From a virus (Duplodnaviria; Heunggongvirae; Uroviricota; Caudoviricetes), in IMG/VR virus record IMGVR_UViG_2880412407_000002: a stretch of DNA of 64,000 nt; one strand, given 5' to 3'. The notes under the pieces were generated by a model. It saw only the letters and a program-made list of their open reading frames with translations, made no database searches and was not told where the DNA came from. Below, piece after piece: positions 45,118 through 45,928 of this stretch (position 1 is the stretch's first letter; each line of letters begins with the position of its first letter). A program made the position numbers and the translations under genes.

Positions 45118-45727
45118 TGATAAATTCCATTTTTAGAAGTAAATAACAGAGTAAGTTCTATCCATACTACTAATCAACAAGCTAATTTTAACAACCAGCA
45201 AAGCCAAGGTGTCAATATTAGAAAAGAGAGTTATATCTCAAAATCAACAGACTGTTGATTTTAACTTTTGTGAATACTTTCTCCAGTCCGTCATGCATGG
45301 ATTAGGATTGCTCATTTTTATACCATTTGTTGTTTTTTATAGCGATTTGCTAAAAGGGAGAAGAAAAAACGTTCTCCAAAATTAGATTGCAACTGTTTGA
45401 TTTTATGGATAGAGGCATGCTGTTTACTAGACAGTAAAAAGCATGCCAAATTTGCTATTAACCTTTTGAATATAAAGCACTAATTATCTATTTCTGTTGC
45501 CTTCTTCAGTAGATCTGGAGATCGCAACGGAGGAAGAAAACTCGTTGCTGGAAGCCTGGAAGAAGTATCGGGTGTTGCTGAACCGTGTTGATACATCAAC
45601 TGCACCTGATATTGAGTGGCCGGAAGAACCAAGATCATCCGAATAAAAATATACCAATTGGTATACCAAGTTTATACCAAGAGCCAGAAAAGCAAAGGGG
45701 CTACCATTTGGTAACCCCTTGATTATT

Positions 45728-45787
45728 TGGCGGAAGCGCAGAGATTCGAACTCTGGAACCCTTTCGGGTCGCCGGTTTTCAAGACCG
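45728..45787 (-). tRNA. Partial tRNA-Ser(UGA)-like gene, 3' 60 nt only (att core)
   Basis: Minus strand reads cggtcttgaaaaccggcgacccgaaagggttccagagttcgaatctctgcgcttccgcca; the 5' half is absent. Confidence 0.7.
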
Positions 45788-45928
45788 AAGAAAAACAAAT
45801 AAAAATCAGTGTAATACGTGAAATTGCTGAAAAGTTAATCAAATTTAACACCAAGAAAAATCAAGGTATTAGGAAGTTGCTCATAGCTAGTATACCAAGT
45901 CTTTTTGCCAGAAATTTTTCTGGATTGT

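Follow-up and report, generated by a model that had tools for sequence, protein, structure and literature searches.

The closest described relatives of the locus analysed here are the prophages Sp4 of Escherichia coli O157:H7 Sakai and CP-933M of O157:H7 EDL933, both of which occupy serT. CP-933M has been reported between yccK and tRNA-SerT (PMC5552260), and circular Sp4 was detected after mitomycin C treatment in a study that sequenced the attP of excised prophages (Asadulghani et al., PMC2669165). A stx2d phage at SerT has also been reported (PMC13188871). For O121:H19, the available text of a genome study reports the serT locus, uses several of the genomes matched here and describes four loci with tandem prophages (PMC8767318). 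In STEC, the usual explanation for tandem prophages is a common att site (Nakamura et al. 2021, PMC8112680), and in the clusters described there effector-carrying lambdoid prophages pile up and recombination reshapes the clusters, likewise as at this locus. Another known arrangement of this kind is the tandem lambda polylysogen, in which phages with the same Int and att lie head-to-tail with an internal P-O-P'.

The DNA analysed here is a 64,000-nt stretch (the window) that forms a segment of the chromosome of a non-O157 EHEC strain. O121:H19 genomes such as that of GTVSS-020 match its first 25 kb and the prophage junction at 100% identity, and positions 1–2717 are 100% identical to positions 3887–6603 of locus L004, taken from the O121 genome of 2014C-4423. 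The left-hand element, prophage 1 (1–45727, plus strand), is lambdoid and runs from int-xis-exo to tail J-lom-tail fibre-espK, as judged from the annotation of identical O121 genomes and from Pfam matches for J and the tail fibre. Its 339-aa integrase, int1 (1–1020, minus strand), reaches the window edge, with position 1 falling on the stop codon. At the opposite end lies the cargo gene espK (43756–45117, minus strand), which encodes a 453-aa type III effector present as RefSeq WP_000938124.1 in 22 genomes and matching phrog_2028 over its full length. This is the gene that the initial annotation had taken for an LRR gene; no LRR domain was found in EspK by Pfam at E < 0.001.

The right-hand element, prophage 2 (45788–64000, plus strand), is Sp4-like and enters the window with its left (early) part only, running beyond the window end. 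Positions 45728–64000 align with Sakai Sp4, starting from its attL, as one 18.27-kb piece with 99.1% identity. The Sp4/CP-933M attL carries the same 60 nt as the junction, next to yccA. Sakai Sp4 is a single prophage, whereas the left half of prophage 2 is preceded here by a second serT-type prophage with espK, and its right half, unlike that of Sp4, has given way to the right half of a torS/torT-type prophage. For packaging in situ from cos to cos across the junction, the spacing would be about 49 kb, estimated by hand from annotated coordinates, but the small terminases of the two prophages are of different types (DUF1441-type versus Nu1-like).

Several further features were recorded along the two prophages. 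Each carries one sok antisense RNA of the hok/sok type I toxin-antitoxin family (11816–11990 and 59171–59345), both above the Rfam gathering score, and prophage 2 contains a DicF sRNA (50363–50414), also above its gathering score. In 2014C-4423, the large terminase gene of prophage 1 is occupied by an island of about 10 kb (L004 30558–40966; NZ_CP027454.1 2,522,557–2,532,965) that encodes a P4-type integrase, a primase, an SSB and a capsid-protease fusion. It resembles the helper-embedded satellites of PMC10111431 and is missing from the window's strain, between 24159 and 24172.

The boundary between the two prophages contains a fragment of serT. In a k-mer comparison with the intact gene, the minus strand of 45728–45787 was identical to serT nt 29–88 at 60 of 60 positions; the plus strand reads TGGCGGAAGCGCAGAGATTCGAACTCTGGAACCCTTTCGGGTCGCCGGTTTTCAAGACCG, its two ends being TGGCGGAAGC and CAAGACCG. 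Intact serT is an 88-nt tRNA-Ser(UGA) gene with the anticodon tga at position 35, as called by ARAGORN in RM8385 (L002 8229–8316) and EH2252 (L005 48491–48578). The fragment extends from the second base of the anticodon stem to the CCA end and thereby holds the anticodon loop, the variable arm, the T arm and the 3' strand of the acceptor stem, with the 5' 28 nt of the tRNA missing. The initial annotation had described a tRNA-Ser(UGA)-like 3' fragment devoid of its 5' half, placed where the cargo of prophage 1 ends and before the integrase gene of the second prophage. Both points are borne out by the exact match to the 3' part of serT, ending in CCA, with espK to its left and int2 to its right.

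ARAGORN called no tRNA in the whole 64-kb window, because the tRNA cluster of prophage 2 starts at its very end, and no Rfam hit at the fragment reached the gathering score. This phage tRNA cluster lies downstream of Q, begins at about 63936–64000, where it is severed by the window end, and comprises Ile (so annotated, with the anticodon CAT; Met according to ARAGORN), Arg-TCG and Arg-TCT.

The 60-mer occurs once in the window, and 100 shuffles yielded no match even with up to three mismatches allowed. The boundary at nt 29 is constant at 14 loci in nine E. coli genomes and in one free phage, and these fragments always adjoin this int gene or sit at an attR. On the minus strand, the stretch that is identical between the bacterial and phage versions of the site is a 65-bp block (45723–45787) consisting of serT nt 29–88 and the 5 nt downstream of the CCA. 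A classification by Williams in 2002 is said to include integration into tRNA genes at an anticodon-loop sublocation. The present site resembles this class in three respects: the block of identity covers the tRNA from its anticodon stem up to the 3' end, the phage restores the 3' part of the tRNA, and a symmetric anticodon stem surrounds a 7-nt loop where the block begins on its 5' side. The crossover probably falls within this anticodon stem-loop. In a wider survey, an 88-nt serT query matched 6261 places in 5427 records. Since about 830 of these are extra copies or fragments, scars left by serT fragments appear to be common among complete E. coli genomes.

The integrases of the two prophages are nearly the same protein. 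Int2 (45929–46948, minus strand; 339 aa) is a lambda-family tyrosine integrase (Pfam PF00589) that matches int1 at 338 of 339 residues, the only change being D46A, and is identical to the Sakai Sp4 Int, ECs_1055, at 339 of 339. Residues 1–319 align with lambda Int (1z1b; E = 5.6e-20), the arm-binding N-terminal domain included. The equivalents of R212, K235, H308, H333 and Y342 are all present, and R311 aligns with a Lys, as the motif reads FHDIK in int1, int2, Sp4 Int and the Int of phage Evi as against FHELR in lambda. To our knowledge, the second catalytic Arg (R311) is near-invariant in tyrosine recombinases. A Lys at this position would normally raise doubts about activity, yet the identical Sp4 Int is associated with circularisation.

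The integrase gene of prophage 2 is accompanied by xis (46926–47168, minus strand), which encodes an 80-aa DUF4224 protein with a match to the phrog_1266 excisionase family (E = 1.9e-23) and is annotated in Sakai as 'phage excisionase'; the protein is probably an excisionase, and the xis products of prophages 1 and 2 are identical. An intact int2 and an excisionase-family gene thus lie directly to the right of the junction. Recombination through the junction core would be supported indirectly by the reported circles of Sp4, which has an identical Int. Given the identity of Int2 with the Sp4 Int, the published circularisation of Sp4 and the published serT sites, the junction element represents a described phage group at a described site, and hence known biology.

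Both flanks of the core carry the elements of a phage attachment site. To the left, four copies of TATACCAA, three direct and one inverted, occupy 45650–45680 on the plus strand and are candidate arm-type Int sites. This motif has eight matches in the 64-kb window, against 1.3 expected, and five of the eight fall within the 250 bp from 45650 to 45898. In the alignment, the repeats are kept in phage Evi and in the attR sites. We infer that they may be arm-type sites bound by the N-terminal domain of Int, which would fit the lambda-like arm-binding domain of this protein. Between the repeats and the core, a terminator scan detected an intrinsic terminator (45685–45720, minus strand) supplied by the phage for the rebuilt tRNA gene. 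It is composed of a hairpin at 45695–45720 followed by a T-rich tail on the tRNA strand. The hairpin folds at −24.1 kcal/mol (z = −5.6), as compared to −22.1 for the native serT terminator, and its sequence is unlike that of the bacterial flank. To the right, the P' arm of prophage 2 (45788–45928, plus strand) extends from the core to the int2 stop codon, contains one TATACCAA copy at 45891–45898 and differs from the P' arm of the yccA border at two positions.

An alignment of the sites revealed P-O-P' at the junction, B-O-P' on the yccA side and P-O-B' next to intact serT. On its left, the junction has the same P arm as the attR sites and Evi, and on its right the same P' arm as the attL sites and Evi, whereas the bacterial flanks differ. 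The free phage Evi (LR597642.1) has an unsplit P-O-P' beside its int gene, in which the core is identical at 60 of 60 positions and both the repeats and the hairpin are present. Judged from this alignment and from the unsplit module of Evi, the junction has the structure of a genuine attP with a complete P-O-P'.

Further to the left, 45506–45646 (plus strand) holds the 3' remnant of a tail-fibre assembly gene, a tfa pseudogene annotated as a partial tail fiber assembly protein and 96–97% identical to lambda tfa. An Rfam IS009 hit at this remnant was rejected, as it scored 84 bits against a gathering score of 117. All of the Rfam hits near the junction (IS009, MicX and others) are below threshold, and are accounted for by the tfa remnant and the terminator hairpin. 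A 27-kb 'plasmid' that carries serT nt 29–88 and looked like a free attP was likewise discarded, since it is a frameshift-ridden chromosomal attL piece from the yccA side.

The whole junction occurs in 22 of 5426 complete E. coli genomes; in others, the match ends exactly at 45787 and then runs into intact serT. Each half of the tandem is also found alone. RM8385 has a single prophage, in the order yccA-core-int...espK-tfa'-intact serT-hyaA, and in the O26 strain 00_3230 the serT site is occupied by one Sp4-like prophage, again single, that ends in tccP2-EspV'-intact serT-hyaA. In EH2252, both singleton units, with the same proteins, stand head-to-tail in the order yccA-core-P1-core-P2-intact serT-hyaA. 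The core lies beside intact serT as attR in EH2252, RM8385 and 00_3230, and in O121 this attR is displaced. EH2252 thus shows the simple tandem attL-P1-attP-P2-attR, whereas in O121 the cognate attR is absent from the right end of prophage 2.

EH2252 directly illustrates the model of two phages with the same Int and att that integrate in succession. Its layout matches that of tandem lambda polylysogens exactly. The system differs from them in that the core is a 65-bp block in a tRNA gene rather than the 15 bp between gal and bio of lambda, in that two different phages are involved that share only an int/att module and some homology, and in that the outer attR is displaced in O121.

The junction is also found away from serT. 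In 00_3230, a torS/torT array runs torS - int3 - ... - stx1A/B - ... - espK - tfa' - core - int2 - ... - NleG - EspJ - torT, and its junction lies about 75 kb from serT, which is occupied there by another prophage. The espK gene and the junction stand in this strain at the right end of a torS-integrated Stx1a phage (L023 36431–37657; NZ_CP074967.1 3,783,430–3,784,656), so that the cargo end of a torS/torT Stx1 prophage harbours a serT-type attP. In strain 12009 (O103:H2), the element that follows the junction on its right (L012, NC_013353.1 2,282,000–2,320,000, and L011) ends in nleB2/nleC/nleH/nleF beside yodB-zinT, at 2.33 Mb and in inverted orientation. This points to a large inversion across the terminus that involved the serT array and a serU-type prophage. 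Several O26 genomes have the junction 460–513 kb from hya.

Given its presence in the torS/torT array of 00_3230, the junction module is also spread by homologous recombination between prophages, so that successive integration at serT is only one of the routes to it. The initial annotation had read the fragment as the footprint of two phages with related integrases using the same tRNA attB one after the other. This is upheld as a route by the near-identical integrases, the singletons and the EH2252 tandem; as the sole route, it does not survive the array of 00_3230.

In the reading that we favour, at a probability of roughly 0.88, the fragment represents the att core used by lambdoid phages of the Sp4/CP-933M type, and the boundary arose when a second phage with the same Int and att entered a rebuilt serT. 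The attP of such a phage carries a copy of serT nt 29–88 together with its own terminator hairpin. Integration rebuilds the tRNA gene on the cargo side, at attR, and leaves the bacterial 3' part that it displaces beside int, at attL. Once another phage with this Int/att module had entered the rebuilt gene, the boundary would become the P arm of phage 1, the core and the P' arm of phage 2, a reconstituted attP devoid of the tRNA 5' half, as seen at 45650–45928. Later homologous exchanges among three prophages of O121 replaced the late half of prophage 2 and displaced its attR by about 214 kb, together with the intact serT and the hya-torS block. The tandem itself would have arisen by the action of Int rather than by homologous recombination.

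A possible but rather unlikely alternative is that the attP was never split: a circular serT-type phage (espK - attP - int) may have been inserted into a related resident prophage by homologous recombination, as a Campbell insertion, or the junction may have been imported by an exchange between prophages. The array of 00_3230, in which the junction stands between the torS-adjacent int3 Stx1a prophage and int2...EspJ-torT, fits such an origin, as do the O121 element int2...NleG-EspJ-torT with the same architecture and the clearly frequent homologous exchange among these prophages; moreover, the sequence of the junction is indistinguishable from the attP of a free phage. However, EH2252 concatenates both singletons at serT with a correct attL and attR, as tandem integration by Int predicts, and a tandem of this type offers a simple source of the junction. 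The two routes yield the same sequence, so the O121 sequence fits either of them. The location of the junction in the 00_3230 array and beside a serU-type right end in 12009, to which homologous recombination has moved it, counts against the favoured reading. The absence of a serT core at the right end of prophage 2 speaks against a simple tandem in O121 as it stands today.

Successive integration into serT has also to be weighed against the entry of prophage 2 into a serT-like pseudo-attB within the cargo of prophage 1 or of a torS/torT prophage. An attB inside a prophage is documented in STEC (PMC8112680), and the fragment does lie in the effector-cargo region of prophage 1. Such an event should have left a second core, but, unlike in the STEC prophage-in-prophage cases, none flanks prophage 2, as neither the remainder of this prophage nor its torT end in O121 contains a serT 13-mer, and the left flank of the fragment is the normal P arm seen in the attR by intact serT and in Evi. 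We thus regard this origin as very unlikely. Less credible still is a chance similarity or a degraded tRNA pseudogene with no link to phage integration, for which only the missing 5' half speaks, given the perfect 60-nt identity, the empty shuffles and an nt-29 boundary shared by all of the loci and the free phage.

The initial annotation had proposed a search for the same core at both outer prophage borders. The left border of the O121 genomes holds it: the same 60 nt lie 142–201 bp to the left of the window start (L004 3686–3745; L006 1324–1383), beside yccA in the same genome, in the order yccA - native terminator - 60-nt core - P' arm - int1. The right border does not. Prophage 2 ends physically about 33 kb beyond the window in NleG - EspJ - torT, and neither this torT end nor the remaining sequence of the O121 prophage 2 contains a serT-derived 13-mer. 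Every genome with a serT match in the whole collection keeps a full 88-nt serT, and the O121 strains must therefore keep one. Its position in 2014C-4423 is 2,768,534–2,768,621, which places it some 214 kb rightward from the junction, in the order potC - [potC-type int ... tccP2 - EspV'] - intact serT - hyaA ... torS, continuing after torS as [torS-type int3 ... EspW] - potB. The independent assembly of GTVSS-020 has the same tccP2 - EspV' - serT - hyaA order.

What led to the serT-hya-torS block was a surplus of about 115 kb in the interval from torT to icd. Two other expectations failed. The block had been predicted at the serU prophage of O121 from the layout of O103:H2 12009, but serU holds a 14-kb remnant only. 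A loss of hya and serT in eight O121-type genomes (eight below 80% coverage) was discarded because all of the matching genomes have a full serT; the weakest hya record is an unrelated strain.

The displaced attR can be followed through the right halves of the prophages. The first 18 kb or so of the O121 prophage 2 match the EH2252 prophage 2 at 92–99.5% with short gaps, and little matches beyond. The last 3.5 kb of the EH2252 prophage 2 have their counterpart, at 99.7% identity, in the right end of the potC prophage of O121, and the late regions of the O121 prophage 2 and of the torS-side hybrid share 16.4 kb at 98.5% identity. From these identities, the three co-oriented lambdoid prophages at serT, torS/torT and potB/potC have cyclically exchanged their right halves by homologous recombination. 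As a result, the 24-kb serT-hya-torS block and the torT-potC block of about 115 kb changed places. In all three O121 hybrids, attL and attR are mismatched. The exchanged region spans NZ_CP027454.1 2,495,000–2,850,000 (L004, L001, L003, L017, L018 and L019), with a counterpart in NZ_CP176678.1 (L007 and L021). The available text of the O121:H19 study mentions inversions only, and the three-way swap of right halves, by which the essential gene serT was moved, is absent from it, as are the words serT, torS, yccA and hyaA from the text of its supplements (PMC8767318).

These displaced ends bear on excision. In O121, prophage 1 alone appears to retain a matching core at each of its ends. Excision of prophage 2 or of the pair, by recombination of the junction or the yccA core with the cognate attR, would delete about 115 kb of core chromosome. 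This stretch is expected to include essential genes. Because of this loss, prophage 2 and the pair are probably locked in effect. The initial annotation had proposed that the core could support the excision of either element or of the pair. At most, this holds for prophage 1, with its two cores; for prophage 2 and the pair it fails, as their attR lies about 214 kb away. It is improbable, though conceivable from the matched sites, that the O121 junction and the displaced attR still serve an intact Int and Xis, leading upon induction to a 214-kb excision or to recombination between sister chromosomes. If so, the Int event would span about 115 kb of core genome, and the tandem junction, far from being a passive scar, would drive large rearrangements or a lethal abortive excision in a site-specific manner.

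Neither the kind of element nor the mechanism is new here. For annotation, the analysis provides exact borders for two effector-carrying prophages of O121:H19, the right-hand one being Sp4-like, and it describes the attP anatomy of this phage group, with its 65-bp core, TATACCAA repeats and phage-borne terminator. The mismatched ends of prophage 2 and of two other effector prophages bear on the mobilisation of espK, tccP2, nleG and espJ.
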